From Escherichia coli (GTDB lineage: Bacteria > Pseudomonadota > Gammaproteobacteria > Enterobacterales > Enterobacteriaceae): 64,000 nucleotides of DNA. The stretch is taken from the NCBI RefSeq assembly GCF_024223415.1, contig NZ_CP100500.1; one strand, written 5' to 3'. A model generated the notes under the pieces. The model did not search any database. It was not told the origin of the DNA and saw nothing but the letters and a program-made list of their open reading frames with translations. The number at the start of each line of letters is the position of its first letter. Positions within the stretch are counted from its first letter, which is position 1. Made by a program: the position numbers and the translations under genes. This document shows, one piece after another, positions 10,010 to 59,586 of this stretch.

Positions 10010-10020
10010 GCCATTTTCTT

Positions 10021-11373: not shown

Positions 11374-11506
11374 GAATTAATCCCCATGCCGGTGAAGAAG
11401 GGGCGTGACTTTAGCGAAATGTTGCCGTCGCGACAACCGGAATATGAAAGCAAAGCGTAGCGTCTGAATAACGTTTATGCTGAAAGCGGATGAATAAGGA
11501 GATGCG

Positions 11507-12355: not shown

Positions 12356-12363
12356 CGTTGGTC

Positions 12364-12452
12364 GCCGGATGCGGTGCGAGCGCCTTATCCGGCCTGGGGA
12401 ATGAGCGATTTGTAGGCATGATAAGACGCGTTAGCGTCGCATCAGGCGATGG
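12364..12452. repeat. REP/BIME palindromic repeats between convergent alkA and dgcE
   Basis: gccggatgcggtgcgagcgccttatccggcc and gtaggcatgataagacgcgttagcgtcgcatcaggcg match the REP consensus. Confidence 0.6.
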
Positions 12453-12463
12453 GGAAGCACGCC

Positions 12464-15400: not shown

Positions 15401-15781
15401 CAGACGCAGCCAGTCAGCCAGATTTTGCAAGGGGTTATACCACGGCAGCAATTTACGTAGCAGCACTGCCCCGACCACGGCTTCAACAATATTGATGGTC
15501 GTCCAGGTCATGTTCAGCGAGCTGGTGGAAAAAAGCAGGATGGATGCGGCGATATTTCCCAGCGAACAGCTCAGCGCAATTCCCGGCCACATGCGCCCGG
15601 CATGGCGATAAAACGCCACCATCATGATGGACGTCGGGAACCACAGTGGGGCGAGTTGGGTGCCAAACTGCGAAAGCTCAAGCGAGAAAAGGGTAAAGAT
15701 AAACGAGACTAAACCTAAACTGACCAGGTGAAGCAGCGGGTGGGGCAGGGCAATTAATACATGCTGTGATTGTTTGCTCAT
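12464..15781 (-). CDS. dgcE: Membrane-anchored diguanylate cyclase/phosphodiesterase DgcE (YegE; MASE1-PAS-GGDEF-EAL)
   Basis: 1105 aa; N-terminal multi-TM region, PAS-like segments, GGDEF motif (ARLGGDEFGLLL) and a C-terminal EAL-like domain. Confidence 0.92.
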   Translation of the reverse strand: MSKQSQHVLIALPHPLLHLVSLGLVSFIFTLFSLELSQFGTQLAPLWFPTSIMMVAFYRHAGRMWPGIALSCSLGNIAASILLFSTSSLNMTWTTINIVEAVVGAVLLRKLLPWYNPLQNLADWLRLALGSAIVPPLLGGVLVVLLTPGDDPLRAFLIWVLSESIGALALVPLGLLFKPHYLLRHRNPRLLFESLLTLAITLTLSWLSMLYLPWPFTFIIVLLMWSAVRLPRMEAFLIFLTTVMMVSLMMAADPSLLATPRTYLMSHMPWLPFLLILLPANIMTMVMYAFRAERKHISESETHFRNAMEYSAIGMALVGTEGQWLQTNKALCQFLGYSQEELRGLTFQQLTWPEDLNKDLQQVEKLISGEINTYSMEKRYYNRNGDVVWALLAVSLVRHTDGTPLYFIAQIEDINELKRTEQVNQQLMERITLANEAGGIGIWEWELKPNIFSWDKRMFELYEIPPHIKPNWQVWYECVLPEDRQHAEKVIRDSLQSRSPFKLEFRIAVKDGIRHIRALANRVLNKEGEVERLLGINMDMTEVKQLNEALFQEKERLHITLDSIGEAVVCIDMAMKITFMNPVAEKMSGWTQEEALGVPLLTVLHITFGDNGPLMENIYSADTSRSAIEQDVVLHCRSGGSYDVHYCITPLSTLDGSNIGSVLVIQDVTESRKMLRQLSYSASHDALTHLANRASFEKQLRILLQTVNSTHQRHALVFIDLDRFKAVNDSAGHAAGDALLRELASLMLSMLRSSDVLARLGGDEFGLLLPDCNVESARFIATRIISAVNDYHFIWEGRVHRVGASAGITLIDDNNHQAAEVMSQADIACYASKNGGRGRVTVYEPQQAAAHSERAAMSLDEQWRMIKENQLMMLAHGVASPRIPEARNLWLISLKLWSCEGEIIDEQTFRRSFSDPALSHALDRRVFHEFFQQAAKAVASKGISISLPLSVAGLSSATLVNDLLEQLENSPLPPRLLHLIIPAEAILDHAESVQKLRLAGCRIVLSQVGRDLQIFNSLKANMADYLLLDGELCANVQGNLMDEMLITIIQGHAQRLGMKTIAGPVVLPLVMDTLSGIGVDLIYGEVIADAQPLDLLVNSSYFAIN

Positions 15782-16098
15782 TACCGCTTTATCCGCAAGA
15801 CCTGGTCGCCAGTATTCGTTTCTGTGTTTATGCTAGTACAAAAGTTTTACATTTTATATGCGAATTGCTCATAAAGTGACGTAAAGGCGGATAATTTGCG
15901 CAACTGCGTATAACATTTTTTACCTTACATAAAACTGATCAACGTAATTTGCCCCCGGGAATTCTTTGTCAACAATTAACTCTGAGCGCGCGGCAACGCT
16001 ATTCGACTGGTATCAGACGGATGAAATCCCTATAATTGCCGCGTTTGGCGCTTCGTCGCCCCCTTCCTAACATCCAGGTTAATCAGGTCGCTAAATAT

Positions 16099-16740
16099 AT
16101 GACTGATCAGTCTCATCAGTGCGTCATTATCGGTATCGCTGGCGCATCGGCTTCCGGCAAGAGTCTTATTGCCAGTACCCTTTATCGTGAATTGCGTGAG
16201 CAAGTCGGTGATGAACACATCGGCGTAATTCCCGAAGACTGCTATTACAAAGATCAAAGCCATCTGTCGATGGAAGAACGCGTTAAGACCAACTACGACC
16301 ATCCCAGCGCGATGGATCACAGTCTGCTGCTTGAGCATTTACAAGCGTTGAAACGCGGCTCGGCAATTGACCTGCCGGTTTACAGCTATGTTGAACATAC
16401 GCGTATGAAAGAAACGGTGACGGTTGAGCCGAAGAAGGTCATCATTCTCGAAGGCATTTTGTTGCTGACGGATGCGCGTTTGCGTGACGAACTTAACTTC
16501 TCCATTTTCGTTGATACCCCGCTGGATATCTGCCTGATGCGCCGCATCAAGCGTGACGTTAACGAGCGTGGGCGTTCAATGGATTCAGTGATGGCGCAAT
16601 ATCAAAAAACCGTGCGCCCGATGTTCCTGCAATTCATTGAGCCTTCTAAACAATATGCGGACATTATCGTGCCGCGCGGCGGGAAAAACCGCATCGCGAT
16701 CGATATATTGAAAGCGAAAATAAGTCAGTTCTTTGAATAA
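16099..16740 (+). CDS. udk: Uridine/cytidine kinase
   Basis: ORF track 16036..16740; start trimmed to [23 protein letters not shown] (P-loop), 213 aa. Confidence 0.93.
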
Positions 16741-16831
16741 GCTTGATAAATTGTGTACCGTTCAGTGATAACCTGGTATGCCCTTGACGTAATTGGCGTT
16801 AAGGGAGTGATGCGCGAAAGGAGAAAATGCC

Positions 16832-17413
16832 ATGCGTCTGTGTGACCGAGATATTGAAGCCTGGCTTGATGAAGGCCGTTTGTCGATCAACCCACGTCCG
16901 CCAGTGGAGCGTATTAACGGCGCGACGGTGGATGTACGCCTGGGCAATAAATTTCGTACCTTCCGTGGTCACACGGCAGCGTTTATCGATCTGAGCGGTC
17001 CCAAAGATGAAGTGAGCGCCGCGCTTGACCGCGTGATGAGCGATGAGATCGTTCTCGACGAGGGCGAGGCGTTCTATCTTCACCCAGGAGAGCTGGCGCT
17101 GGCGGTGACGCTGGAGTCGGTGACGCTGCCAGCCGATCTGGTGGGCTGGCTGGACGGGCGTTCCTCACTGGCGCGTCTGGGGCTGATGGTGCACGTCACC
17201 GCGCACCGCATCGATCCGGGCTGGTCTGGTTGCATTGTGCTGGAGTTCTACAACTCCGGTAAGCTGCCGCTGGCGCTGCGTCCGGGCATGTTAATTGGTG
17301 CGCTGAGCTTTGAGCCGCTTTCCGGCCCGGCGGCGCGACCTTACAACCGCCGTGAAGATGCGAAATATCGCAACCAGCAGGGCGCGGTAGCCAGCCGAAT
17401 CGATAAAGACTAA
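16832..17413 (+). CDS. dcd: dCTP deaminase
   Basis: 193 aa, [23 protein letters not shown]... Confidence 0.95.
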
Positions 17414-17434
17414 TTCAGGCCCATTGAGGATACC

Positions 17435-19288
17435 ATGAGACGATTTCTGACGACGCTGATGATACTCCTGGTCGTGCTGGTGGCCGGGTTATCTGCGTTA
17501 GTGTTGCTGGTGAATCCGAATGATTTCCGCGACTATATGGTCAAGCAAGTTGCTGCACGTAGCGGTTATCAATTGCAGCTCGACGGGCCACTGCGTTGGC
17601 ACGTCTGGCCGCAGCTTAGTATCCTCTCCGGGCGAATGTCTCTCACCGCCCAGGGCGCAAGCCAGCCACTGGTTCGCGCCGACAACATGCGTCTGGACGT
17701 GGCGCTTTTACCACTACTGAGTCATCAACTGAGCGTTAAGCAGGTGATGCTAAAAGGGGCAGTGATCCAACTGACGCCGCAGACGGAAGCGGTGCGCAGT
17801 GAAGACGCTCCGGTTGCACCGCGCGACAATACCTTGCCGGATCTGTCAGACGATCGCGGATGGTCGTTTGATATATCCAGTCTTAAGGTGGCGGACAGCG
17901 TTCTGGTGTTCCAGCATGAAGATGACGAGCAGGTGACAATCCGCAATATCCGCCTGCAAATGGAACAAGATCCCCAACATCGTGGCTCATTTGAGTTTTC
18001 TGGGCGGGTTAATCGCGATCAGCGCGATCTCACGATATCCCTTAACGGTACGGTAGATGCTTCTGATTATCCGCATGATTTAACGGCGGCTATTGAACAA
18101 ATTAACTGGCAGTTGCAGGGTGCCGATTTACCAAAACAAGGTATTCAGGGGCAGGGGAGTTTCCAGGCCCAGTGGCAGGAGTCACATAAACGCCTTTCAT
18201 TTAACCAAATCAGCTTGACCGCCAATGACAGTACGCTGAGCGGGCAAGCACAGGTTACGCTGACAGAGAAACCGGAATGGCAGCTGAGGCTGCAATTCCC
18301 GCAACTGAATCTTGACAACCTCATCCCGCTTAATGAAACAGCGAATGGTGAAAACGGTGCCGCGCAGCAGGGGCAGAGCCAATCAACGTTGCCGCGCCCG
18401 GTTATTTCTTCGCGTATTGATGAACCGGCCTATCAGGGACTGCAAGGCTTTACGGCTGATATTTTGTTGCAGGTCAGTAACGTGCGCTGGCGCGGAATGA
18501 ATTTTACAGATGTTGCCACGCAAATGACCAACAAGTCGGGTTTGCTGGAAATTACTCAACTGCAGGGCAAGCTTAACGGTGGACAGGTTTCACTGCCGGG
18601 CACGCTGGACGCGACATCAATAAATCCGCGGATAAACTTCCAGCCACGGCTGGAAAACGTTGAGATTGGTACCATTCTGAAGGCGTTTAACTATCCGATT
18701 TCGTTGACCGGAAAAATGTCACTGGCTGGTGATTTCTCCGGTGCTGACATAGATGCCGACGCATTCCGCCACAACTGGCAAGGACAGGCACATGTCGAAA
18801 TGACCGACACGCGCATGGAAGGGATGAACTTCCAGCAGATGATTCAGCAAGCGGTAGAGCGTAATGGCGGTGATGTGAAGGCCGCTGAAAACTTTGATAA
18901 CGTGACGCGGCTTGACCGCTTTACCACCGATTTGACGTTGAAGGATGGCGTCGTGACGTTAAACGACATGCAAGGTCAATCGCCTGTGCTGGCGCTGACA
19001 GGGGAAGGCATGTTGAATCTGGCAGATCAAACCTGCGACACCCAGTTTGATATTCGGGTCGTGGGTGGCTGGAACGGGGAAAGCAAACTGATTGATTTCC
19101 TGAAAGAAACGCCAGTACCGCTGCGGGTTTATGGCAACTGGCAGCAACTCAATTACAGCCTGCAAGTGGATCAGTTACTGCGCAAACATCTACAGGACGA
19201 AGCGAAACGTCGCCTGAATGACTGGGCCGAGCGGAATAAAGATTCCCGTAATGGCAAAGATGTGAAGAAGTTGCTTGAGAAGATGTAG
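17435..19288 (+). CDS. asmA: Outer membrane assembly protein AsmA
   Basis: 617 aa; N-terminal TM anchor MRRFLTTLMILLVVLVAGLSALVLLV then a large periplasmic domain. Confidence 0.9.
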   Translation: MRRFLTTLMILLVVLVAGLSALVLLVNPNDFRDYMVKQVAARSGYQLQLDGPLRWHVWPQLSILSGRMSLTAQGASQPLVRADNMRLDVALLPLLSHQLSVKQVMLKGAVIQLTPQTEAVRSEDAPVAPRDNTLPDLSDDRGWSFDISSLKVADSVLVFQHEDDEQVTIRNIRLQMEQDPQHRGSFEFSGRVNRDQRDLTISLNGTVDASDYPHDLTAAIEQINWQLQGADLPKQGIQGQGSFQAQWQESHKRLSFNQISLTANDSTLSGQAQVTLTEKPEWQLRLQFPQLNLDNLIPLNETANGENGAAQQGQSQSTLPRPVISSRIDEPAYQGLQGFTADILLQVSNVRWRGMNFTDVATQMTNKSGLLEITQLQGKLNGGQVSLPGTLDATSINPRINFQPRLENVEIGTILKAFNYPISLTGKMSLAGDFSGADIDADAFRHNWQGQAHVEMTDTRMEGMNFQQMIQQAVERNGGDVKAAENFDNVTRLDRFTTDLTLKDGVVTLNDMQGQSPVLALTGEGMLNLADQTCDTQFDIRVVGGWNGESKLIDFLKETPVPLRVYGNWQQLNYSLQVDQLLRKHLQDEAKRRLNDWAERNKDSRNGKDVKKLLEKM

Positions 19289-44358: not shown

Positions 44359-44532
44359 ATTTGCGACCATTCCTGGAAAAATGGATCCATACTTAGGAAC
44401 AATGCTACTGCAATCCACAACGAAGCGGCGTAACATCACAAGTAATTCAGTAATCAATTCAGGGTAATTGATGCTGGCGAAAAAAATCGAACAAGCTATA
44501 ATTCAGCAACCATTTTACAGGTGGATGAAATA

Positions 44533-45426
44533 ATGACGAATTTAAAAGCAGTTATTCCTGTAGCGGGTCTTGGGATGCATATGTTGCCTGCCACTAAGGC
44601 GATTCCCAAAGAGATGCTACCGATCGTCGACAAGCCTATGATTCAGTACATTGTTGACGAGATTGTGGCTGCAGGGATCAAAGAAATCCTCCTGGTAACT
44701 CATGCGTCCAAGAACGCGGTCGAAAACCACTTCGACACCTCTTATGAATTAGAATCTCTCCTTGAACAGCGCGTAAAGCGTCAATTGCTTGCGGAAGTGC
44801 AGTCCATCTGTCCACCGGGCGTGACCATTATGAACGTGCGTCAGGGCGAACCTTTAGGTTTGGGTCACTCCATTTTATGTGCACGACCCGCCATTGGTGA
44901 CAATCCATTTGTCGTGGTGCTGCCGGACGTTGTGATCGACGACGCCAGCGCCGACCCGCTGCGCTACAACCTTGCTGCCATGATTGCACGATTCAACGAA
45001 ACGGGTCGTAGCCAGGTGCTGGCAAAACGTATGCCGGGTGACCTCTCTGAATACTCGGTCATCCAGACCAAAGAACCACTGGACCGTGAAGGTAAAGTCA
45101 GCCGCATTGTTGAATTTATCGAAAAACCGGATCAGCCGCAGATGTTGGACTCAGACATCATGGCCGTTGGTCGTTATGTGCTTTCTGCCGATATTTGGCC
45201 GGAACTTGAACGCACGCAGCCAGGTGCATGGGGGCGTATTCAGCTGACTGATGCCATCGCTGAACTGGCGAAAACACAGTCCGTTGATGCCATGCTGATG
45301 ACAGGTGACAGCTACGACTGCGGTAAAAAAATGGGTTATATGCAGGCATTTGTGAAGTATGGACTACGCAACCTCAAAGAAGGGGCGAAGTTCCGTAAAG
45401 GGATTGAGAAGCTGTTAAGCGAATAA
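44533..45426 (+). CDS. galF: UTP-glucose-1-phosphate uridylyltransferase homolog GalF
   Basis: ORF track starts at GTG 44521; ATG at 44533 gives [30 protein letters not shown] (297 aa). Confidence 0.95.
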
Positions 45427-45683: not shown

Positions 45684-45722
45684 CAGTGTTCTGGTAGCTG
45701 TAAAGCCAGGGGCGGTAGCGTA
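45684..45722 (+). promoter_or_regulatory. JUMPstart with ops element in the O-antigen cluster leader
   Basis: cagtgttctggtagctgtaaagccaggggcggtagcgta; ops core GGCGGTAGCGT. Confidence 0.8.
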
Positions 45723-46450
45723 CATATGAGGAAACATTTCAGCTGAAATAATTGAATATTCCAAAGCATGAGAGTTACTTAATTTGTAAAAGTGCTACAG
45801 TACAATAGAGAGGATCTCTGTCTTCATATTGTTTGCGATCATCTCAGATGAAGTTATTGATTTCATCTTTTAATAGAAGAACTGAATAGAATATGTATGG
45901 CATTATCATTTTGAACAATAATAATAGAATAAAAGGAAGACATCGAAATGGTGGTCAAACATTACATCAGTTCTATTGATTTGACAGCAGAGAAGTCTGC
46001 CACAGCGAACCAAAATTACTGACTCGTAGAGAAGAAGTTGCACTGGCTGCTGAATGGTAATGGATGAAGACGACAGAGAAATAAGAAAAGAAAACTCAGC
46101 AGAATTACCTTCAGGGATATAGCGCATCACTATTTATGTATTGACTAAAGATAAAGCATTTAAGAAAGGTTAAGGTGTAAGGTGTGAAAAGCAGCCATGG
46201 GTAAGGTTCGTTTCGCACAGGCGTTACTTACAGTAGATGGTCGGCACATCGTAAGACTTGGTCTGATTGCCAGATCATATGTGAGACATCAGAAAAAATT
46301 TAAGCAAATATATAAACAGTAGGTGATGTTGTTAAAGTATAAAACAGATATGGTAGTCAAATAAAGCAAAGTATCGTTGGAAAAATATCTGTAAAATCCC
46401 TGGTGCGTTCACGTGAGTTAGAGTAAAAGTAATGAGGAGGTTCTATTTTT

Positions 46451-47551
46451 ATGAGTTTTGAAAATTGGTATATAAAAGATATTGAACCATATAAACTGGC
46501 TAGTCATAAAGTATGGGACGATGTTTGCAACCGAGATATATTAAAATTAGATTGGAATGAAGCAACTATTCCTGCTAGTCCGTATGTAAAGAAAAGAATT
46601 TTAGAAACTATTGATAAAATAGAGTTTAGATATTACCCAAACGTAAACAACATGGAGTTGTTAACAGCTATCGCGGGATATACTCAACTCAACATAGAAA
46701 ATATTCAATATTTTCCAAGTTCTGATGCTGCACATGAATATATAGCATCAGTATTCTTAACATCAGAAGATAGAGTGTTAATATTGTCCCCGACATATGA
46801 TAATTTCAGGCTAACCTGTCAAAGTAGAGGGGCGGAAATATCGTATGTTAATTGTTTTGATGGGGCGTTTCAATTCCAGAGTGAATTATTTATAAATGTT
46901 TTGAAAGAAACAAAGCCTAAAATTGCATATATGTGTAACCCTAACAATCCGACGGGTTCAATAATAAGGCGGGAATATATAAAGAAAATATTAACTCTTT
47001 TTCCTGATATCTTGTTTGTTTTAGATGAGGCTTATATTGAATTTTCATCTGGTTCATGTGGTGATTTTGTTAAGGAATATGATAATTTGATAGTATCAAG
47101 AACCTTCTCGAAGGCATTTGCGCTGGCCAATTTTAGGATTGGTTATATATTGGCTTCACCTAAACTTATAGTTTCAATTAATAAAATAAGAAATTCTAAG
47201 AATGTAACGACATTATCACAAGAGGCTGCAGTTGCTGCATTGCATGATTCTCAATATATGCAAGCTTATGTTAATGAGGTGATTGTAGCGCGACAATACT
47301 TTATTGAAGAGATAAATAGAAGGTTTGGAGATAAGCTGATAGCATATGAAAGTCATGGTAATTTTGTTCTTGTAAAATGCTCCTCGGAAATACTAAAAAA
47401 AACATTAATAAAAGGCCTGGAGGAACAAGATATTTTCATAAGAGATTTGTCACACAAGGAGCTCAATGGTTTACATATAAGGATTACTATTGGAACACGG
47501 ACTCAAATGAGGCAGGTGCTTAATGTTATTGAAAATATTATTGGTCAATAA
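46451..47551 (+). CDS. PLP-dependent class I/II aminotransferase-fold enzyme, HisC/CobD-like
   Basis: 366 aa; motifs CNPNNPTG, DEAYIEF and SRTFSKAFALANFRIGY (candidate PLP-lysine); low-GC codon usage. Confidence 0.8.
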   Translation: MSFENWYIKDIEPYKLASHKVWDDVCNRDILKLDWNEATIPASPYVKKRILETIDKIEFRYYPNVNNMELLTAIAGYTQLNIENIQYFPSSDAAHEYIASVFLTSEDRVLILSPTYDNFRLTCQSRGAEISYVNCFDGAFQFQSELFINVLKETKPKIAYMCNPNNPTGSIIRREYIKKILTLFPDILFVLDEAYIEFSSGSCGDFVKEYDNLIVSRTFSKAFALANFRIGYILASPKLIVSINKIRNSKNVTTLSQEAAVAALHDSQYMQAYVNEVIVARQYFIEEINRRFGDKLIAYESHGNFVLVKCSSEILKKTLIKGLEEQDIFIRDLSHKELNGLHIRITIGTRTQMRQVLNVIENIIGQ

Positions 47552-47587
47552 TATGTTTGCAGGCGCTCTTTATTATGTTGGTCAGCG

Positions 47588-48277
47588 ATGAAATATAAAT
47601 ACGCTTTTTTTGATTTTTGTGAAACGTTGGTGGATTTACAAACTGCTGATGATTACATTTCTGATGTGATTATTAAGAAGGAAGGCCGATGGAGTTATAA
47701 GCTTGCGATTATTGGCTTCTTAAGGAATAGATGGGTTAATAAATTATTTAATAAATTGTTTAACAATTATGATAACCCTAAGTCTTTGATTTTGAAGCTG
47801 GTTAAAGGGTTTGACTATGGGGTCTTTTCTGTTGCTGCAGAAGAATATTGTAAAAAACTAATGGAGTATTACTTAATTGATGATGTTATTTCGGAGATGC
47901 TAGAATTAAAAAAAAAGAATTATCAAATAATCATTGTCTCTGGGGGATATGATATATATATAAAGCATTTTTTTTCCTCAGTTGTAGATAAGGTTATAGC
48001 TACCGAGATTGATTTTTCTGATTCTAAGTGTCTGGGGAAAATATCAGGTATTGATTGTTTAGGTGTGAACAAGTTAAACAAAATAAAGAAATATATTGAT
48101 GTCAACACAATAGATTATGAAAATTCCTACGTCTTTTCTGACAGTAAAACAGATTTGCCTCTTTTTTCGTTAGCAAAGAATAAAATTGTCATATCTAAGA
48201 AAAAAAACAAATCGTGGGTTAATGAGCAAAATGAAGAATTTATTGAAAAAGTATGGTGTCCTAAAAAAATATGCTAA
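47588..48277 (+). CDS. HAD-superfamily hydrolase, probable phosphatase
   Basis: 229 aa; HAD motif I-like AFFDFCETL (second Asp replaced by Cys), motif II IVSGG, motif IV-like FSDSKTDLPLF. Confidence 0.7.
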   Translation: MKYKYAFFDFCETLVDLQTADDYISDVIIKKEGRWSYKLAIIGFLRNRWVNKLFNKLFNNYDNPKSLILKLVKGFDYGVFSVAAEEYCKKLMEYYLIDDVISEMLELKKKNYQIIIVSGGYDIYIKHFFSSVVDKVIATEIDFSDSKCLGKISGIDCLGVNKLNKIKKYIDVNTIDYENSYVFSDSKTDLPLFSLAKNKIVISKKKNKSWVNEQNEEFIEKVWCPKKIC

Positions 48278-49145
48278 GAAGTATTATTACTATACTTCTT
48301 CTTTTTTAATGTCAGATGAATTATATATAAAAAGGAAGTTTAAGAAAATTTTCGGATATGCTTTGGATATCAATAATCCAAAAACAATGAATGAAAAGAT
48401 GCAATGGATGAAGTTACATATGCATCCTCAGGAATATAATATTTTTGCAGATAAACTTCTTGTTAGAAAATACGTGGAAGAAAAGATTGGTAAAAATATA
48501 CTAATACCTATTTTTGCAGTATACGAAAGTGAAGCCGAATTAAATATAGATTCTTTGCCTGACGAACCATTTATCATTAAGACGAATCATGATAGTTCTG
48601 GTGGAATAATCGTGAGAAACAAATCAGAACTCAATATAAAGGATGCAAAAAGTTTTTGTCGATTTAATTTGAATAACAATCATTATTATATATCAAGAGA
48701 GAAACATTATAAACATTTAGACAGAAAAATTATTATAGAGAAGCTCCTTCTTACAAAATCCGGAAAAATCCCAAATGATTATAAAATAAATTGTATAAAT
48801 GGGCGTGCTGAATTTATATATTGCTCTATTGATAGAGAGGGGAAAAATTACCGAAAGATTTATGACAGGTCTTGGTGTGAAATGGATTTTAAATGGGGAA
48901 ATAAAGATGAGTTTGAGCATAAATTTACTGGGCCCAATATTGAAAAGCCTGATAATTTAGATAAAATGATTGAGTATGCGGAGATATTATCAATGGGGTT
49001 TCCTTATCTAAGAATAGATTTATACAATGTTGATGGGGAAATATATTTAGGAGAAATAACTATTTATCATGGGGGAGGGTTTGATGTTATTGAGCCAAAA
49101 GAATATGACTTATTTTTTGGTAATAAGATTCATTTAGAAAAATGA
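48222..49145 (+). CDS. TupA-like ATP-grasp amidoligase (start uncertain; ORF track begins at TTG 48186)
   Basis: N-terminal NPKTMNEKMQWMKL matches the conserved P-x-TFNEKIQWLK region of TupA-like ATP-grasp proteins; overlaps the upstream HAD ORF by 56-92 nt in another frame. Confidence 0.7.
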   Translation: MSKMKNLLKKYGVLKKYAKKYYYYTSSFLMSDELYIKRKFKKIFGYALDINNPKTMNEKMQWMKLHMHPQEYNIFADKLLVRKYVEEKIGKNILIPIFAVYESEAELNIDSLPDEPFIIKTNHDSSGGIIVRNKSELNIKDAKSFCRFNLNNNHYYISREKHYKHLDRKIIIEKLLLTKSGKIPNDYKINCINGRAEFIYCSIDREGKNYRKIYDRSWCEMDFKWGNKDEFEHKFTGPNIEKPDNLDKMIEYAEILSMGFPYLRIDLYNVDGEIYLGEITIYHGGGFDVIEPKEYDLFFGNKIHLEK

Positions 49146-50362
49146 AAAATATTATAAAGAATGGGCTGTCTCTTTCTTTTATAAAGGCAGTGACTTTGCT
49201 ATTTCCTATCGCCATTGTACCTATCCTGATATCAAAGATAGGAATGGATAAATATGGGGAAGTTGTATTTATCACTGCAATATATTCATATTTTATTAAT
49301 GTGGTTAGCTTTGGATTTGAAGAATCAGCCACTCAAGTCTTGGCAAAGAATCACTTCTCAGGTTTGTCGAAAAATGAATATATTTTGTCTGTTATCGTGC
49401 TCAAGGGCATAATTGCTGTTTCTATAATTTTTGTCATTTGTGGTTTGTATTTTTTGGGGATGGGAGGAGATTTTTTCTCATTGCTATTTTGTATTACCAT
49501 CGTCGCTGAGGTTTTTAATCCCTTATGGTTTTATCAGGGGGTCGAAAGAATTCATATTATCTCAGTGAGCTCTATAGTATCAAAATCATTATATACAATA
49601 TTAATATGTCTGTTTGTGAGATGTAATAATGATTATTACCTTGTTCCTGTATTTTTAGGCGGTGCGAATATTCTTTCTTATGTCTATCCGTTTGTTGCTA
49701 TGTGTAATGAGTGTAAATTTCGGCGCAATGACTTGAACTATAATAATTTGAAAAAAGTATTATTAGACTCAGTTAGTATATTCCTTACTAATTTTATCCC
49801 AACATTGAAAGATAAGATAGGTGCTATATTGATAGGTTTATCTTTCTCCATGAATATCGTAGCGATTTATGATATAATTATAAAAATACTTAATTTATTG
49901 TTTATTCCAGTAAATGTAATAAATGCATCGTTCTATCCAACACTTTCCAGGAAGAGAGAAAAGAAAATATTAATGCAATTAATGTATATAAATTTGGGTT
50001 ATGCTATTTTTGCATTTGTTATCGTATGTAATTTTTTTGATTATTTTTCCAATATCTACTTCCAATCCTATTCAGCGTATTCCGATGCTGTAAAAATAAT
50101 ATCTGTGTCTGTTGTTTTTTACTCAGTGAGTTTAATGATTGGAAAAAATATCCTATTGGTCACTGGTTTTTATCATCATGTGCTGCTCAGTATTATATTA
50201 TCGACAGGATTTTATTTGATGTTTGTCTGCTTTATGTATTCTCTTAGTTCATTGAGTATATATTCATTATGCTTTTTAACAACAGCATCATTCTTATTTG
50301 AAATGCTGGTTAGGTTAATTATGTTAAAGAAGACTAAGGCCTTGTTTTTTTTTAAATATTAA
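49142..50362 (+). CDS. wzx: O-antigen flippase Wzx
   Basis: 406 aa polytopic membrane protein, MOP-family-like; ATGA overlap with the upstream gene. Confidence 0.8.
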   Translation: MKNIIKNGLSLSFIKAVTLLFPIAIVPILISKIGMDKYGEVVFITAIYSYFINVVSFGFEESATQVLAKNHFSGLSKNEYILSVIVLKGIIAVSIIFVICGLYFLGMGGDFFSLLFCITIVAEVFNPLWFYQGVERIHIISVSSIVSKSLYTILICLFVRCNNDYYLVPVFLGGANILSYVYPFVAMCNECKFRRNDLNYNNLKKVLLDSVSIFLTNFIPTLKDKIGAILIGLSFSMNIVAIYDIIIKILNLLFIPVNVINASFYPTLSRKREKKILMQLMYINLGYAIFAFVIVCNFFDYFSNIYFQSYSAYSDAVKIISVSVVFYSVSLMIGKNILLVTGFYHHVLLSIILSTGFYLMFVCFMYSLSSLSIYSLCFLTTASFLFEMLVRLIMLKKTKALFFFKY

Positions 50363-50376
50363 TTAGGTATGGAAGT

Positions 50377-51246
50377 ATGAAAACAGTGTCAGTAATCATT
50401 CCAACATATAGGGATTGGGAAAGATTATCTAAATGTTTAAATGCAATAAAAAAACAAAGATATCCCGCAGAGTTTATTCAGGTAATAGTCATTAATAATG
50501 ATCCATTTGATGATAATCCATTTATAAATAGTGATGAATATAAAAATGTAAAGTTTTTAGTAGAGGGAAAGGTGGGTTCTTATGCAGCAAGAAATAAAGG
50601 CCTAAATTATGCAAAAGGGGAGATTATAGCATTCACTGATTCAGATTGTGTCCCAGATGAGTTTTGGATTTCAAATGCTGTTCGACATTTTGAAGAAAAT
50701 AGTAAATGCACAAGAATTGGTGGGAAAATTGAATTATTTTTCAAAGGTAATGTAAGTAAAACCCTAGCTGAATTTTATGAACAAAGTTATGCTTTCCGGC
50801 AGAAAGAGTTTGTTCAACGACAGGGAATGGCTGCAACAGCTAATATGTTCTCATATAAGAAGGTTTTTGATGATATATCATATTTCAATGATTCATTGAT
50901 GTCGGGAGGAGATGCCGAATGGGGAGTTAGGGCAAATAATAAAGGATATAGAATAGACTATTGTGATTCTGTCACTGTTTATCATCCGGCAAGAGAATCG
51001 ATGAAACAAATTTTTATAAAAAATCGAAGGGAAGCCAGTGGTAAAATAAAAAATAAACGAAAAGTGTTAATCAATTTTGTAATGTCATTGCTCCCACCAT
51101 TAAAATCGTTGATGTATATTAGGTATCATGGGAATAGTATATATAAAGTATTAATTGCATTTTTTATTAGATATTTAATGAGGATTGATACGGCTATAGA
51201 ACAAATCCGGGTTGTGTTTTTTAATAAGAAAGCCGAGCGATTATGA
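50377..51246 (+). CDS. Glycosyltransferase family 2
   Basis: 289 aa; VSVIIPTYRDWERLSKCLNAI and FTDSDC motifs. Confidence 0.8.
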   Translation: MKTVSVIIPTYRDWERLSKCLNAIKKQRYPAEFIQVIVINNDPFDDNPFINSDEYKNVKFLVEGKVGSYAARNKGLNYAKGEIIAFTDSDCVPDEFWISNAVRHFEENSKCTRIGGKIELFFKGNVSKTLAEFYEQSYAFRQKEFVQRQGMAATANMFSYKKVFDDISYFNDSLMSGGDAEWGVRANNKGYRIDYCDSVTVYHPARESMKQIFIKNRREASGKIKNKRKVLINFVMSLLPPLKSLMYIRYHGNSIYKVLIAFFIRYLMRIDTAIEQIRVVFFNKKAERL

Positions 51247-52487
51247 AAATGTTTTTTTTTGTTCTTTGCGTGTTCTTTTTAATAAATGGCTTTTATATAT
51301 ATCCGCCATTTAATAGTGCAATTTTAGCACCGATGTTAGCTTTATTGGGAGCACTAACATTAAGGAAGAAAATAACGATAAAGCCCTTTTCTGACTTGTT
51401 AGATCCTTCATTTTTATTTTGGTTTCTTTTTGTAAGTTGTTATTGTCTATCAATTGCAGTTTTCTCAAAAACATATGACTTATCATATGTAAAGAACTTT
51501 ATATCACAACTTGTTCAATTTGCTATTATTTTATTTAGTTTTTTTATGTTATCATCAATAGATGGAGCATTTTCTCTTAAGATAGAAAAAATTATCGTAT
51601 ATAGCTTCGTTTTACAATCTGTTATTCAGATAGCAGCATTTCTATATCCTGGAATAGCCGATATTATTCATTTATTTTATGATAAAGATAAAGTAGAGCG
51701 ATTATACATCAATTACGCAGGAGTAAGAGGACTGGCGTTGACTGGTTCCCCAGGGTGGGGAATATCTGTTGGATATGCTATATCATTTTTACTTTTTGTT
51801 AAAGCATTTGTTATTAATCAGAAATTGAAGTTTTCTAGTATTATAGTTGCAATACTACTTTTAATCGGTGCAATGTTTACTGGTCGCAGTGCTTTTATTG
51901 GTGTTATTTTCGGTGGGGGGTATTATCTTGTATCAGGAGAGGATATTACAAAAAAAATCAAAACTATAATTCTATTTTTAATTCTTCCTGCATTAATATG
52001 CATGTTAACATATATAATGTTGCCATCCCTATCCTCACTATTCGGAGATAAGGTTTTCCCATTTGTCTTTGAGTTCTATTATAAATACAAAGACACAGGT
52101 GAGTTATCTACTAAATCTACAGATATTTTGTTGAATATGTGGGATCTTAACGTTGATGTTACTGACATTGTGTTCGGTACAGGTAATTTCACAAATGACA
52201 AAACTGGAGAGTATTATTTCGGTAGTGATGTGGGATATCTCCGGAATTTATTGTATGGTGGTTTTTTTTGGATGTTCACTCTTTTTATTTATCAGGTTTC
52301 ATTATTTGGACAACTGCGTTGGTGGAAAAAAAGAAAGGATATTAAATTATTTGTATTCATTTTTATAGCCATGTTAATGTTGCTTGAGATGAAAGCAATG
52401 GCCATAGGATATAATAAATATGTGTTTACAGTTTCTATTTTATTAGGATTGTCATTTAAAGAGAGATACAGAAATGCTTACCAATAA
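51243..52487 (+). CDS. wzy: O-antigen polymerase Wzy
   Basis: 414 aa, about 10-12 predicted TM segments with a large loop; no similarity to Wzx; position. Confidence 0.7.
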   Translation: MKMFFFVLCVFFLINGFYIYPPFNSAILAPMLALLGALTLRKKITIKPFSDLLDPSFLFWFLFVSCYCLSIAVFSKTYDLSYVKNFISQLVQFAIILFSFFMLSSIDGAFSLKIEKIIVYSFVLQSVIQIAAFLYPGIADIIHLFYDKDKVERLYINYAGVRGLALTGSPGWGISVGYAISFLLFVKAFVINQKLKFSSIIVAILLLIGAMFTGRSAFIGVIFGGGYYLVSGEDITKKIKTIILFLILPALICMLTYIMLPSLSSLFGDKVFPFVFEFYYKYKDTGELSTKSTDILLNMWDLNVDVTDIVFGTGNFTNDKTGEYYFGSDVGYLRNLLYGGFFWMFTLFIYQVSLFGQLRWWKKRKDIKLFVFIFIAMLMLLEMKAMAIGYNKYVFTVSILLGLSFKERYRNAYQ

Positions 52488-53385
52488 AGTCTCTGTTGTT
52501 ATTCCGACACATAGTCGGCCTAATCTTTTGCGAAAAGCTATAGAAAGTGTTTTGAATCAGACATATAAGCCATGTGAAATTATTGTTGTTGATGATACAG
52601 AATCTGAAGAAACCGCTCGATGTTTATCTGTCATAAATAGCGATATACCTATTAGGCTAAAGTATAACACTTCTTCTGGTGCCGGCTCGTCTAGGAATTT
52701 AGGTGCAAAGATTGCTAATGGTGATTTTGTGGCTTTCTTGGATGACGATGATCTCTGGCTTCCAACTAAATTAGAAACGCAGATGTATGAATTGCGGCAT
52801 ACACAATATGATGCAATTTTTTGTCAGATGATAATAAATTATGAAGGGGTAAACATACAATATTCTACTCGAGCCAAAAATGTAGCTGAACCATTAAAAG
52901 AAATATGTATTGAAAACTTTATTGGTGCCACAATATCCTGTGTTATACGCCGTTCAATTTTTATGAAATTAGGAGGGTTTGATGAAAGATTCAAGGCTAG
53001 AGAGGAATATGATTTATGGATTCGAGTTATTCAATCTAATGCTAAAATTAAAATAATAGAAAAACCATTAACTATTTCAAATCGTTCTTTTGTACGGAAT
53101 CGTATTTCTTCTAACATAAATAATTATGAGCACGGAATATCACTTATTAACGAAAAATATGCTCGATTGATTACTGAAATATTAACTCCCAATGAGAGAA
53201 GAATAAGATTATCGAAACAATATGAATTTCTAGCTGCTCAGGCAATATCTTTAGGCCTTAAAATGACAAGCTCAAAGTATTATTTTAAGTCTTTTTTAAC
53301 AATTCCTTCTCTTAAATCGTTATTTCTTTCATTGTTGAGTATTATTTCTCCGCTAATGATAATAAAAATTAGAAGCAAACTTTAA
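52474..53385 (+). CDS. Glycosyltransferase family 2
   Basis: 303 aa; VSVVIPTHSRPNLLRKAIESVLNQTY and FLDDDD motifs. Confidence 0.8.
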   Translation: MLTNKVSVVIPTHSRPNLLRKAIESVLNQTYKPCEIIVVDDTESEETARCLSVINSDIPIRLKYNTSSGAGSSRNLGAKIANGDFVAFLDDDDLWLPTKLETQMYELRHTQYDAIFCQMIINYEGVNIQYSTRAKNVAEPLKEICIENFIGATISCVIRRSIFMKLGGFDERFKAREEYDLWIRVIQSNAKIKIIEKPLTISNRSFVRNRISSNINNYEHGISLINEKYARLITEILTPNERRIRLSKQYEFLAAQAISLGLKMTSSKYYFKSFLTIPSLKSLFLSLLSIISPLMIIKIRSKL

Positions 53386-53427
53386 TTATATCATCATTAT
53401 TAGACAGTCAATAACTGTGGAGTTAAC

Positions 53428-54690
53428 ATGAGTTCTGGGTTTAATTCTATTGAAAAGAACTTTTCAAGATTTTTATCTTACTTTCCAGGGATAAAAAAAA
53501 TAATTAAAAAAGCTTACATAAGGATAAATTTTTATATCTACAAAAAAGAACATAAAGTAAAAAGTGATTACAGCATCCATACGATTGATATCGATAGTTG
53601 CGAAACTTTTTTTGGATACTATGATAAATGTCCCGATAATGGTAAAGGAGATGTTATCGTTTGTGCATCGACTATATCTACCCACAACATACCTGATCCA
53701 AACAATCCGATTAAATTATATGTGTACAATCTTTGTACTAAAGATAAGGTGTTCATTGCTAATATTTCTGCATATAATTGGCAACAAGGATGTCGTGCTC
53801 ATTGGCTAAACGATGATTTACTTATTTATAACTTTTACTCTCATGAAAAGCGTAATTATTCGTCGAAAATATACTCAATCATAGAGAAAAAACATATAGC
53901 AGAGTTCTCTTTTGCGGTACAAGACAGTTTTCTTGGTAATTATTTTTTATCTATAAACTATTCTCGCTTAATGGCGTTACGCCCAGATTATGGATATAGA
54001 AATAAAAGTTTTTCTTGGGAATTGTTTGATCTGGCTAATGATGGTATATGGAAAGTCGATATTAGCTCTCGTAAGGGAGAATTAATCGTTACATTTTGTG
54101 ATATTATTAATTTTGAGTTTGAAAATAATGATGAGTATAAACATAAAGTTAACCATGTAATGATTTCTCCCGATGGTGAAAAATTTATATTTATACATCG
54201 TTATTATTATAAAGGTAAACGGAATGATAGATTAATGTTGTCAACCAAAGACGGACATTTAATTTCAGTATTAGCTAATAATAAAATGGTTAGTCATTGT
54301 TGTTGGCTTTCCAATGATAAAATTATCGGTTATTTAAGATCTGATAGTGGTGATGATAGTTATTGGGTTATTGATATAAATAATCTGGAGTCATACCAAC
54401 TCTTAGATGGTGAATTACTAAAATATGGCGATGGTCATCCATCGAATTGTAAAAATCTATTAGTGACGGATACATATCCTAATAAGTCAAGATATCAGAA
54501 ATTATTATTAGTCGATATGGATAATGATAATTACCAGGAACTTGGTGAGTTTTTACATGATCTTAGTTTTTCTGATGAGACTAGATGTGACTTACATCCT
54601 CGCTTTTCTCATGATGGCAGCATGATTTTTTTTGATTCAGTTTTTTCTGGAAAACGCAAGTTATGCTATTTACAGTTAATTAATAAATAA
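53428..54690 (+). CDS. Hypothetical protein, possibly beta-propeller-like; function unknown
   Basis: 420 aa, no GT signature recognised; repeated SPDG/SHDG-type strands (MISPDGEKFIFIH, HPRFSHDGSMIFFDS). Confidence 0.55.
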   Translation: MSSGFNSIEKNFSRFLSYFPGIKKIIKKAYIRINFYIYKKEHKVKSDYSIHTIDIDSCETFFGYYDKCPDNGKGDVIVCASTISTHNIPDPNNPIKLYVYNLCTKDKVFIANISAYNWQQGCRAHWLNDDLLIYNFYSHEKRNYSSKIYSIIEKKHIAEFSFAVQDSFLGNYFLSINYSRLMALRPDYGYRNKSFSWELFDLANDGIWKVDISSRKGELIVTFCDIINFEFENNDEYKHKVNHVMISPDGEKFIFIHRYYYKGKRNDRLMLSTKDGHLISVLANNKMVSHCCWLSNDKIIGYLRSDSGDDSYWVIDINNLESYQLLDGELLKYGDGHPSNCKNLLVTDTYPNKSRYQKLLLVDMDNDNYQELGEFLHDLSFSDETRCDLHPRFSHDGSMIFFDSVFSGKRKLCYLQLINK

Positions 54691-54695
54691 AGTGA

Positions 54696-55511
54696 TTGTA
54701 TATGAAAGTCGCAGTCGCAATGTCTGTATATAAGAATGATAATCCTATATACTTAGAGAAAGCCATTAAAAGTATATTGAATCAAACATATAAAAATATC
54801 CATTTATATATAGAGGTCGATGGAGTCATATCTCCACAATTATATCAATGTTTATCCTCTTTTATCTCATGCTCAAATATTAGTATAAATTTTAATAGTG
54901 ATTGTAAAGGATTGGCATTTAGATTAAATAATATTATTGATAAGGTTATATTTGATGGAGGATATTCGTATATTGCAAGAATGGATGCTGATGATATATC
55001 TCGACTCGATAGGATTGAAAAACAAGTAATATTTATGCAGACCCATAAGGATATTTCTGTTGTTGGTTCTGATGTTCTAGAAATAGATGAGGATGATAAT
55101 TTTTTATTTTACAAAAAAATGCATTGTGATCATGAGATCATCGTTCGAGATATTATTAAGAAATGTCCAATAAATCATCCCTCAGCATTTTTTAAAATAT
55201 CTTCATTTTATATAGTTAGATATAATTCCACCTTGAAGAACACACAGGATTATTACTTGTGGATTGATTTTATTTATAATAATTTAAAGATCTCAAACAT
55301 CAATGAGCCTTTGTTAAAATTTAGAGTGAATAGAGATTTTTATTCACGGAGAGGGTTTGATAAAGCTATCAATGATGTAAAATCACGAATATATGCCTTG
55401 CGAAAGTTGAATTGCTATTCACTAAGGAATATATTTCATATATTAATGCTTTTTTTTCTTAGAGTATCTCCGACTGTAATAAAAAAAATTGCATACAATA
55501 GACTTAGATAA
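54696..55511 (+). CDS. Glycosyltransferase family 2-like
   Basis: 271 aa; VAMSVYKNDNPIYLEKAIKSILNQTY and ARMDADDIS motifs; start may be the ATG at 54702. Confidence 0.75.
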   Translation: MYMKVAVAMSVYKNDNPIYLEKAIKSILNQTYKNIHLYIEVDGVISPQLYQCLSSFISCSNISINFNSDCKGLAFRLNNIIDKVIFDGGYSYIARMDADDISRLDRIEKQVIFMQTHKDISVVGSDVLEIDEDDNFLFYKKMHCDHEIIVRDIIKKCPINHPSAFFKISSFYIVRYNSTLKNTQDYYLWIDFIYNNLKISNINEPLLKFRVNRDFYSRRGFDKAINDVKSRIYALRKLNCYSLRNIFHILMLFFLRVSPTVIKKIAYNRLR

Positions 55512-57105: not shown

Positions 57106-57135
57106 TCTGATTTAAATCAATTAATCGATGCAAGG

Positions 57136-57160
57136 CCCGGAGAAATCCTTCGGGTTTTTT
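57136..57160 (+). terminator. Rho-independent terminator after gnd
   Basis: cccggagaaatccttcggg hairpin (7-bp stem with one G-U pair) followed by tttttt. Confidence 0.6.
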
Positions 57161-57349
57161 ATTATACAAAGTGGCAGGTTATGGCTTTTTTATAATTTAT
57201 GGTTAAAAAGCGATATAATACATAGACGCACAGCAGGATTACTGCCTTGACAGTTCATCCGCATCAGCGTTAAAAATCCCGCAGTAGATGAAGATGTGTT
57301 GGTAGATTAATGACCACTCTAAATGTTTAACCGGAAGAAGTCAGAGCTA

Positions 57350-58516
57350 ATGAAAATAACAATTTCAGGAACAGGTTATGTTGGTCTTTCAAATGGTATT
57401 CTGATTGCGCAAAACCACGAAGTGGTTGCACTGGATATCGTTCAGGCCAAAGTGGACATGCTTAACAAGAAGCAGTCACCGATTGTTGATAAGGAGATTG
57501 AAGAGTATCTGGCGACTAAAGATCTCAATTTCCGCGCTACGACAGATAAGTATGACGCGTATAAAAATGCCGATTACGTTATTATTGCCACGCCTACCGA
57601 TTATGATCCGAAAACGAATTATTTTAATACCTCAAGCGTGGAAACGGTCATTCGCGATGTGACAGAAATTAATCCCAGCGCGGTAATGATTATAAAATCA
57701 ACTATCCCTGTTGGTTTTACAGAGTCTATTAAAGAACGGTTTGGTATTGAAAATGTGATTTTTTCGCCGGAGTTTTTACGCGAAGGGAAAGCACTTTATG
57801 ATAACTTGCATCCATCACGCATAGTGATTGGCGAGCAATCTGACCGCGCAGAACGTTTTGCAGCGTTATTACAGGAAGGCGCTATTAAGCAAGACATACC
57901 AATATTGTTTACTGACTCAACCGAGGCTGAGGCGATTAAACTTTTTGCCAATACTTATCTGGCGATGCGTGTGGCTTATTTTAATGAACTAGATACTTAC
58001 GCTGAAAGTCTGGGTCTTAACTCCCGCCAAATTATTGAGGGAGTTTGCCTTGATCCGCGTATCGGTAATCACTACAATAATCCGTCATTTGGTTATGGTG
58101 GTTATTGTCTGCCGAAAGATACTAAGCAGTTACTGGCAAACTATCAGTCAGTACCGAATAACTTGATCTCAGCAATTGTCGATGCCAATCGCACGCGAAA
58201 AGATTTTATTGCCGATTCTATCCTTGCACGTAAACCGAAAGTTGTTGGCGTCTATCGTCTGATTATGAAGAGTGGTTCGGACAATTTCCGTGCTTCCTCA
58301 ATTCAGGGTATTATGAAGCGAATCAAGGCGAAAGGCGTGCCTGTAATCGTTTATGAGCCAGCTATGAAAGAGGACAATTTTTTCAGGTCGCGCGTGGTAC
58401 GTGATCTGGATGCGTTCAAGCAAGAAGCTGATGTTATTATTTCTAACCGTATGTCTGCCGATCTGGCTGATGTAGCAGATAAGGTTTATACGCGCGACTT
58501 GTTTGGCAATGATTAA
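57350..58516 (+). CDS. ugd: UDP-glucose 6-dehydrogenase
   Basis: ORF track 57323..58516; trimmed to [16 protein letters not shown] (388 aa). Confidence 0.95.
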
Positions 58517-58581: not shown

Positions 58582-59586
58582 TCAAACTTTATAGAAGTTA
58601 CGATACCATTCTACAAAGTTCTTTACCCCCTCTTTAACTGACGTTTCAGGTTTGAATCCTATTACGTCATACAGTGCTTTGGTATCAGCACTGGTTTCCA
58701 GTACATCACCGGGTTGGAGAGGCATCATATTTTTGTTGGCTTCAATACCCAGAGCCTCTTCTAACGCATTGATATAGTCCATCAACTCTACAGGCGAACT
58801 ATTACCAATGTTATAGACACGATATGGTGCTGAACTTGTTGCAGGCGAGCCTGTTTCTACAGCCCACTGTGGATCTTTTTCTGGAATAACATCCTGTAAG
58901 CGAATAATAGCTTCGGCAATATCATCAATATAAGTAAAGTCACGCTTCATTTTGCCGAAGTTGTAAACATCAATGCTTTTACCTTCCAACATGGCTTTAG
59001 TAAATTTAAATAATGCCATATCCGGACGTCCCCATGGACCATAAACCGTAAAGAAACGCAGTCCTGTGGTCGGTAAGCCATACAAATGAGAATATGTATG
59101 GGCCATGAGTTCATTCGCTTTTTTAGTTGCTGCATAAAGTGAAACAGGATGATCTACAGAGTCATCTGTAGAGAAAGGCATCATGCGGTTCATACCATAA
59201 ACAGAACTGGAGGAAGCGTAAAGTAGATGCTGAACATTATTATGGCGGCATCCTTCCAGTATGTTCAGGAATCCAATCAGGTTTGCATCTGCATATGCAT
59301 TGGGATTTTCAAGGGAGTAACGTACACCGGCTTGCGCAGCGAGGTTTATTACGCGATCGAACCGCTCCTCTGCAAACAGTGCTGCCATTTTCTCACGATC
59401 GGCCAGGTCAATTTTATAAAAACTGAAATTGTCGTGCTTGAGTAAATCAAGTCGTGCTTGTTTGAGGTTGACATCGTAATAATCATTTAAGTTGTCAATG
59501 CCTACAACCTGATGACCAGCTGCAAGAAGCCGTTTACTTACATAGAAACCGATAAAGCCAGCAGCTCCCGTAACCAGAAATTTCAT
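58582..59586 (-). CDS. gla: UDP-glucuronate 4-epimerase (NAD-dependent SDR epimerase, Gla/CapI-like)
   Basis: 334 aa; [21 protein letters not shown] Rossmann motif and YxxxK (YAATKKANE); position between ugd and wzz. Confidence 0.8.

Follow-up and report, generated by a model that had tools for sequence, protein, structure and literature searches.

The 64,000-nucleotide stretch of Escherichia coli DNA analysed here (the window; NCBI RefSeq assembly GCF_024223415.1, contig NZ_CP100500.1) carries an O-antigen region between about 44.5 and 61 kb, whose low-GC central block opens with three plus-strand open reading frames (ORFs): ORF1 (46451..47551), encoding a HisC-fold pyridoxal phosphate (PLP) transaminase of 366 amino acids (aa); ORF2 (47588..48277), encoding a HAD-IB phosphatase of 229 aa; and ORF3 (48231..49145), encoding a stand-alone TupA-like ATP-grasp amidoligase. 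The block lies behind galF and continues with wzx, a GT2 glycosyltransferase gene, wzy, a second GT2 gene, a gene for a 420-aa protein and a third GT2 gene, followed by gnd, ugd, a gla-like epimerase gene on the minus strand, wzzB and hisIE. The original prediction, made from the DNA alone, held that the three-gene module opens the O-antigen cluster, and it does: ORF1–3 are the first genes after the JUMPstart element, between galF and gnd. The reading frames it described are likewise there, and every motif it quoted is present in the translations (CNPNNPTG, DEAYIEF, SRTFSKAFALANFRIGY, FFDFCETL, FSDSKTDLPLF and NPKTMNEKMQWMKL). By analogy with a characterised pathway of Campylobacter jejuni, we consider it probable, at roughly 80%, that this module modifies the O-antigen: a hexuronic acid, probably galacturonic acid (GalA), would have its carboxyl group turned into an amide with serinol (2-amino-1,3-propanediol). 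Four observations underlie this reading: homology to the C. jejuni enzymes, conservation of catalytic residues, the ATP-grasp fold of the ligase and a clade-specific linkage of the three genes.

In the C. jejuni HS:2 capsule, glucuronic acid (GlcA) is amidated with serinol by a pathway that has been reconstituted: Cj1437 forms (S)-serinol phosphate by transamination of dihydroxyacetone phosphate (DHAP), Cj1436 yields ethanolamine phosphate through decarboxylation of L-serine phosphate, Cj1438 has an ATP-dependent amidoligase as its C-terminal domain (Cj1438C), and Cj1435 is a HAD phosphatase acting on the phosphorylated amide (PMC11800397). The same reaction sequence has been shown for the HS:19 capsule (PMC13276843). 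In both systems the ligase uses serinol phosphate on a GlcA already present in the growing chain, and the phosphatase then clears the phosphate from the amide, which must be dephosphorylated before the next glycosyltransferase accepts it (PMC11800397, PMC13276843); these two studies, of 2025 and 2026, cite papers from 2022 on the phosphatase and the ligase. The HS:2 enzymes (NCTC 11168; Cj1437, Cj1438C and Cj1435) and their HS:19 counterparts (HS19.10, HS19.11C and HS19.09) belong to the same three protein families as ORF1–3, with the same inferred job, and a UDP-glucose dehydrogenase is encoded nearby in E. coli and C. jejuni alike. For our comparisons, the Cj1435 and Cj1438C sequences were taken from the supplement of PMC11800397, while Cj1437 and Cj1436 were recovered from C. 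jejuni contigs that encode Cj1435.

ORF1 matches the Pfam family Aminotran_1_2 (PF00155; 1.3e-54) and is 48% identical to Cj1437 over 284 aa, or 45% identical over 357 aa (E 2e-93) to a frame-corrected, reconstructed Cj1437 sequence. Its best profile match is the hisC model TIGR01141, and it shares with HisC the fold, the PLP lysine (K221, aligned with HisC K214) and two arginines, R331 and R344, that align with R322 and R335 of E. coli HisC; D192, Y195, N166 and R229 are conserved as well. The two C-terminal arginines of HisC hold the phosphate of the substrate, and their retention in ORF1 along with the PLP lysine fits a keto-phosphate substrate. ORF1 nevertheless lacks the marks of a housekeeping HisC: it scores 270.3 bits against the TIGR01141 cut-off of 276.55 (genuine E. 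coli HisC scores 421.4), its gene is not part of the his operon, it shares 27% identity with the HisC that the intact his operon of this genome encodes, and it bears the sequence LKLDWNEAT. The profile search that the original prediction had proposed as a check thus placed ORF1 neither among sugar aminotransferases nor among genuine HisC proteins, upholding its view that the enzyme is neither of DegT type nor a HisC of the histidine pathway. We predict, from the activity of Cj1437, that ORF1 converts DHAP and L-glutamate into (S)-serinol phosphate. A similar reaction is reportedly catalysed by the N-terminal domain of RtxA from Bradyrhizobium elkanii, an example also given in the original prediction, which is said to aminate DHAP to serinol phosphate on the way to rhizobitoxine; that pathway makes a toxin, whereas ORF1 would serve glycan decoration.

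The phylogeny of ORF1 bears directly on which amine the module makes. We scanned 80 loci encoding ORF1-like proteins, one genome per species, retrieved with two peptide patterns of which one is the clade signature, so that the sample is not random; within it, identity to ORF1 is bimodal, with 18 loci at 39–49% and 62 at no more than 37%. In a neighbour-joining tree of 85 sequences, 24 Cj1437-like proteins, including ORF1, Cj1437 and the Edwardsiella, Photobacterium, Shewanella and Parabacteroides proteins, form a single clade without intruders, leaving outside it E. coli HisC, Cj1436 and the other HisC-like sequences (61), and none of the 61 ordinary HisC-like sequences in the sample has the clade signature LKLDWNEAT that ORF1 carries. 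A different amine, such as ethanolamine phosphate or aminopropanol phosphate formed by decarboxylation, phosphoserine or histidinol phosphate, would give the O-antigen another amide. The HisC fold family does include decarboxylases (CobD and Cj1436), ORF1 scores near the hisC cut-off, several databases name it 'histidinol-phosphate transaminase', and 45% identity is no guarantee of shared specificity. Yet ORF1 groups with Cj1437 to the exclusion of HisC and Cj1436, is 25% identical to Cj1436, and reaches 157.6 bits on the CobD model TIGR01140, far from the cut-off of 290.55 and from the profile of a CobD- or Cj1436-type enzyme; hisC and hisB are both present in the genome's his operon; and Cj1437 itself, whose activity is characterised, has an equally near-threshold hisC score (246.8 bits). 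We therefore regard another amine as distinctly unlikely. Of the alternatives first proposed, a serinol-type amide on a hexuronic acid is favoured by the 45–48% identity to Cj1437, while the CobD-like route to aminopropanol phosphate is disfavoured by the same CobD score and low identity to Cj1436.

In two C. jejuni contigs (L006, and L007 at 2316-2328), Cj1437 is interrupted at a run of about ten G, its last 70 residues being encoded in a different frame. Such a split is consistent with phase variation of serinol amidation; ORF1 contains no poly-G tract.

ORF2 matches PF12710 (2.9e-19) and TIGR01488 (64.7 bits, cut-off 45), and its closest characterised relative is Cj1435, to which it is 29% identical (E 9e-23, BLASTP). 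The two proteins share an unusual motif I of the form D-x-C-x-T, found in ORF2 within residues 8–12 (F-D-F-C-E, 47609-47623) and in Cj1435 as encoded at 3773-4408 of contig L007. Among 16 aligned HAD proteins from comparable cassettes the motif is intact in 15, the N-terminus of the remaining one (L008) not having been recovered; 11 of the 15, including ORF2 and two Campylobacter sequences, read DFCET, and the other four read DFCDT, DFCGT or DVCET. The second aspartate of motif I is the usual general acid/base of HAD phosphatases, and the cassette proteins have a cysteine in its place. By analogy with Cj1435, ORF2 is predicted to strip the phosphate from a uronic-acid serinol-phosphate amide.

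ORF3 matches ATPgrasp_TupA (PF14305; 3.2e-47) over 240 of the 241 model positions and aligns with the whole of the Cj1438 C-terminal domain at 29% identity (E 3e-36). Three in-frame starts are available, at 48186, 48222 and 48231: the ATG at 48222, used by the original prediction and by GenBank, gives 307 aa, and the ATG at 48231, used by RefSeq and matched by the Edwardsiella orthologue, gives 304 aa and overlaps the HAD gene by 47 nucleotides (nt). An AlphaFold model of the protein (mean predicted local distance difference test score, pLDDT, 91.1; predicted template modelling score, pTM, 0.88) adopts the ATP-grasp fold: each of its 50 best fold matches in the Protein Data Bank (PDB) is an ATP-grasp protein, and almost all belong to the ATP-dependent ligases or carboxylases (ArgX/LysX, Ddl, RimK and PsnB). 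These matches combine a probability of 1.00 with TM-scores of 0.35–0.47, values low enough to indicate that no close structure has been solved, and a PDB sequence search with ORF3 returned no match. The profile searches, and for ORF3 this model, bear out the enzyme classes originally assigned to all three proteins. The reaction predicted for ORF3, again from its C. jejuni counterpart, is the ATP-dependent joining of a uronic-acid carboxylate and serinol phosphate into an amide.

Carried over to E. coli, the C. jejuni scheme suggests five steps. ORF1 would turn DHAP and L-glutamate into (S)-serinol phosphate, and a glycosyltransferase of the cluster would add a uronic acid, from UDP-GlcA or UDP-GalA supplied through ugd and gla, to the O-unit linked to undecaprenyl diphosphate (Und-PP) at the cytoplasmic face. 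ORF3 would then use ATP to link serinol phosphate, through its amino group, to the terminal uronic acid's C6 carboxylate, after which ORF2 would take the phosphate off the amide; elongation by the next transferase, flipping by Wzx and polymerisation by Wzy would follow. We infer from C. jejuni the substrates, the order of the steps, the lipid-linked acceptor and the choice of GalA over GlcA, with amidation of the cytoplasmic Und-PP-linked O-unit preceding Wzx flipping; the order and the GalA target are less certain than the serinol-amide function itself, because both rest on analogy.

The original prediction had ordered the same enzymes differently, with dephosphorylation before ligation: ORF1 would make serinol phosphate, ORF2 would free serinol, and ORF3 would ligate free serinol, possibly at the level of the UDP-sugar. 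The enzyme set is identical under either order, ORF2 does match small-molecule phosphatases (phosphoserine and histidinol phosphatases) weakly, with a PDB match to phosphoserine phosphatase at 4e-07, and a stand-alone ligase in a different assembly pathway would allow a different acceptor. Against this, the ligase of both characterised systems was assayed with serinol phosphate, which it uses, and acts on GlcA once this is incorporated, and the phosphatase acts last, on the amide (PMC11800397, PMC13276843); ORF2, moreover, has the D-x-C-x-T signature of Cj1435, its closest characterised relative. We find dephosphorylation before ligation unlikely and favour ligation of serinol phosphate followed by phosphate removal.

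The linkage of the three gene types follows the phylogeny of the transaminase. Neighbouring HAD and ligase genes occur at 11 of the 18 Cj1437-like loci and at none of the 62 ordinary HisC-like loci (Fisher p = 3e-9; the 80 loci of the non-random sample drawn with the two peptide patterns). The order aminotransferase–HAD–TupA seen in the window recurs in Edwardsiella tarda, in Photobacterium damselae and in Parabacteroides goldsteinii, where the cassette sits in a capsule locus directly after a UDP-glucose dehydrogenase gene; Shewanella and C. jejuni have the same three gene types in another order (in C. jejuni: ligase, Cj1437, Cj1436, phosphatase), and the cassette is present as well in several metagenome-assembled genomes, mostly of Bacteroidota. 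It is thus a portable cassette, found in Pseudomonadota, Bacteroidota and Campylobacterota and probably also in Synergistota and Bacillota. The E. coli version departs from that of C. jejuni in several respects. Its ligase is a free-standing 304-aa protein, whereas the C. jejuni ligase is the C-terminal domain of a glycosyltransferase fusion; its cluster contains no Cj1436-type decarboxylase and hence no ethanolamine alternative, whereas C. jejuni has one; its product is assembled by Wzx and Wzy on Und-PP as an O-antigen, as opposed to an ABC-transporter capsule built on a primer of 3-deoxy-D-manno-oct-2-ulosonic acid (Kdo) and lipid; and its target is probably GalA, gla being present, as opposed to GlcA.

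Seven Cj1437-like loci carry neither the ligase nor the phosphatase; in five of them (L010 424-4739, L018 4977-8122, L019 1059-3070, L020 4976-8107 and L022 1543-6189) the transaminase is 41–49% identical to ORF1. LicD/Mf1-like phosphotransferases are encoded near the transaminase in the four loci inspected (Prevotellaceae, two Lachnospiraceae and Phocaeicola), and profile searches found them together with a LicC/TagD-like nucleotidyltransferase in three (L010, L018 and L022). In L020, neighbouring ORFs resemble both L018 genes, and in the short contig L019 a single neighbouring ORF resembles the L018 nucleotidyltransferase. These loci suggest a possible second use of serinol phosphate, in which cytidine diphosphate-serinol (CDP-serinol) is formed and phosphoserinol is then transferred; we know of no description of CDP-serinol or of phosphoserinol decoration.

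In four gammaproteobacterial genera the cassette forms part of a common nine-gene block (46451-55511 of the window; 10001-19099 of Edwardsiella contig L002; 10001-18986 of Photobacterium contig L003; 7172-16091 of Shewanella contig L089). One E. tarda genome encodes orthologues of all nine proteins at 64–77% aa identity, P. damselae encodes all nine in the same order at 43–68%, and Shewanella sp. 125m-1 does so with the positions of the aminotransferase and 420-aa genes swapped. GC content is 30% in the window block, against 53% upstream and 48% downstream, and it is 30% in Edwardsiella and 26% in Photobacterium, whose host genomes stand at about 59% and about 40%; so low a GC content relative to the hosts suggests lateral acquisition from a low-GC donor.

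This conservation speaks to whether the module is active at all. It might be inactive or irrelevant to the O-antigen, as a hitch-hiking remnant would be, leaving the O-unit with an unmodified uronic acid; in strain 181.1, the second complete genome with the cluster (L090 8289-15370), the annotation shows only fragments of the HAD, ligase, wzx, wzy and 420-aa genes and of one transferase gene. That damage, however, is spread across the whole AT-rich block, making homopolymer assembly errors likelier than real decay. ORF1–3 are intact in the window and in E. coli Combat11I9, the exact ORF1–3 proteins are present on more than 100 public contigs, and the conservation of nine proteins across four genera despite 23–57% aa divergence implies selection. 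An inactive module is accordingly highly improbable.

The uronic acid itself could be supplied from genes that adjoin the cluster, as originally noted. The first is ugd (57350..58516, plus strand; RefSeq), whose UDP-glucose 6-dehydrogenase supplies UDP-GlcA, and the second is the gla-like gene (58582..59586, minus strand), encoding an NAD-dependent epimerase that is probably a UDP-GlcA 4-epimerase yielding UDP-GalA. The nearest functionally labelled solved relative of the epimerase is 6ZL6 (8.6e-43), which we take to be the Bacillus cereus UDP-glucuronic acid 4-epimerase, its PDB title reading only 'Epimerase domain-containing protein'. The gla-like gene is accessory in E. coli (292 of 5,426 complete genomes), and behind the Photobacterium cluster lie a ugd and an epimerase gene, each sharing 76% identity with its counterpart in the window. 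On the strength of this pairing beside the cluster, its accessory character and its recurrence in Photobacterium, the target is probably GalA and not GlcA.

Two enterobacterial O-antigens are known to contain just this substituent. The O-polysaccharide of E. tarda PCM 1153 contains an amide of GalA with 2-aminopropane-1,3-diol, as stated in the title of a paper cited in PMC5485987, and that of Shigella boydii type 8 contains the same amide (PMC10609480). Both thus carry exactly the modification predicted for the window, and one E. tarda genome has the syntenic nine-gene cluster described above. With these precedents and the biochemically characterised C. jejuni counterpart, the pathway is no longer the uncharacterised side-chain pathway for which the original prediction had proposed it as a candidate. 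S. boydii type 8 shares its O-antigen with E. coli O143, a serogroup that we considered for the window and rejected: the O143 cluster carries gne and an extra glycosyltransferase gene, and the window is therefore not O143; Combat11I9, moreover, types as O-. Counting likewise against O143, megablast and blastn searches of the other complete E. coli genomes recovered no related cassette, and no S. boydii/O143 ligase appeared among the best 120 homologues of ORF3. The text of a 2019 review of E. coli O-antigen genetics contains no serinol, no ATP-grasp enzymes or ligase and no amidotransferases; in the searchable literature, TupA-like ligases are linked to uronic-acid amides only in the C. jejuni work, and literature searches on amides of serinol or propanediol in E. 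coli O-antigens likewise led to that work alone.

Window DNA is 100% identical to that of Combat11I9, a urine isolate from Hong Kong, and the cluster is present in 2 of 5,426 complete E. coli genomes. One preprint gives the in silico type of Combat11I9 as O-:H28, so that the standard O-typing scheme does not cover the cluster. Relative to Combat11I9, ugd and gla are offset by one base, indicating a 1-bp indel in the gnd–ugd spacer (57106-57349) and hence an origin of the window in an assembly not exactly the same.

Several points weigh against a serinol amide on GalA. ORF2 and ORF3 are only 29% identical to characterised enzymes, and sequence alone does not secure the specificity for amine or acceptor. 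Because a free-standing ligase works here beside Wzx and Wzy on Und-PP, unlike in C. jejuni, the acceptor, be it a lipid-linked unit or a UDP-sugar, could differ, and GlcA could be the target instead of GalA. Combat11I9 is O-non-typeable in silico, and the E. tarda genome that carries the syntenic cluster may belong to an O-type other than that of PCM 1153.

If the serinol-amide reading holds, ORF1–3 represent in E. coli, where they are not annotated as such, a pathway already known and characterised biochemically, and they embody no new biochemical principle; the variant is set apart by its free-standing ligase, the Wzx/Wzy pathway, the probable GalA target and the missing ethanolamine branch. 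The finding is of use for annotation and for predicting O-antigen chemistry. Genes publicly annotated as 'histidinol-phosphate transaminase', 'HAD family hydrolase' and 'ATP-grasp fold amidoligase' would receive a specific, testable function, and an E. coli lineage that is untypeable and associated with urinary tract infection and poultry is predicted to carry a charge-neutralising serinol amide on its O-antigen. The C. jejuni capsule pathway would thereby be extended to Wzx/Wzy O-antigens, and the serinol amides that have long been known from Edwardsiella and from Shigella/E. coli O-antigens would gain a likely genetic basis.

The remaining genes of the block are those of a Wzx/Wzy-dependent E. 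coli O-antigen cluster, as its position between galF and gnd, the JUMPstart ahead of it and its complement of wzx, wzy and glycosyltransferase genes attest. All on the plus strand, they comprise wzx, the O-unit flippase gene (49142..50362; 'oligosaccharide flippase family protein' in RefSeq, with PF01943 in orthologues); wzy, the O-unit polymerase gene (51243..52487; 'oligosaccharide repeat unit polymerase' in RefSeq, with a polytopic, hydrophobic translation); and three RefSeq-annotated GT2 glycosyltransferase genes with PF00535 in their orthologues (50377..51246, 52474..53385 and 54702..55511, the last being the final gene of the low-GC block).

The 420-aa protein (53428..54690, plus strand) is present in all four syntenic clusters, in Escherichia, Edwardsiella, Photobacterium and Shewanella, and is elsewhere not part of the amidation cassette. 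Searches of Pfam, NCBIfam and PDB sequences gave no match to it. In its AlphaFold model (pLDDT 78, pTM 0.80) a helical hairpin at the N-terminus precedes a beta-propeller, and among the PDB entries that match it best in fold are two PL22 oligogalacturonate lyases, 3PE7 and 3C5M (TM-scores of about 0.6–0.68). The AlphaFold database holds relatives at 30–50% identity under the labels 'glycosyl transferase', 'oligogalacturonate lyase domain' and 'TolB', with a Shigella sonnei relative among those labelled 'glycosyl transferase'. Going by the modelled fold, the protein could be a uronate-acting enzyme or a non-canonical transferase. A more far-reaching combination can be imagined, which we offer speculatively and hold to be rather unlikely as a whole: the window would represent an unnamed E. 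coli O-serogroup with a laterally acquired, nine-gene, 30%-GC block shared with Edwardsiella, Photobacterium and Shewanella; its serinol-amidated uronic acid, made on a lipid-linked intermediate, would be the first Wzx/Wzy case with a free-standing ligase; and the propeller protein would be a new kind of enzyme acting on uronates, such as a C5-epimerase, or else a non-canonical glycosyltransferase that uses the amidated sugar.

Upstream of the cluster, galF (44521-45426) ends at 45426, ahead of a JUMPstart RNA at 45684..45722 on the plus strand (Rfam RF01707; 56.6 bits, gathering score 35, E 4.5e-12) that marks the start of the O-antigen operon. The element contains the ops sequence GGCGGTAG at 45711-45718, and upstream of the Edwardsiella cluster lies a 40-nt stretch 85% identical to the JUMPstart region of the window. 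Between JUMPstart and ORF1 runs an unusually long non-coding leader of about 730 nt (45723..46450, plus strand) with no ORF of at least 80 aa. Beyond JUMPstart it matched no Rfam family, and apart from JUMPstart nothing in it is conserved in the Edwardsiella or Photobacterium loci; terminators were not found in it, and promoter-like sites did not exceed chance. The leader occurs in 2 of 5,426 complete E. coli genomes, the same two that have the cluster, and is thus specific to this O-type. The ops core 8-mer GGCGGTAG itself occurs seven times in the window, against 1.3 expected; the recognised JUMPstart holds the copy at 45711 only, and the remaining copies lie at 2248, 2758 and 10148 on the minus strand and at 21046, 21633 and 34307 on the plus strand.

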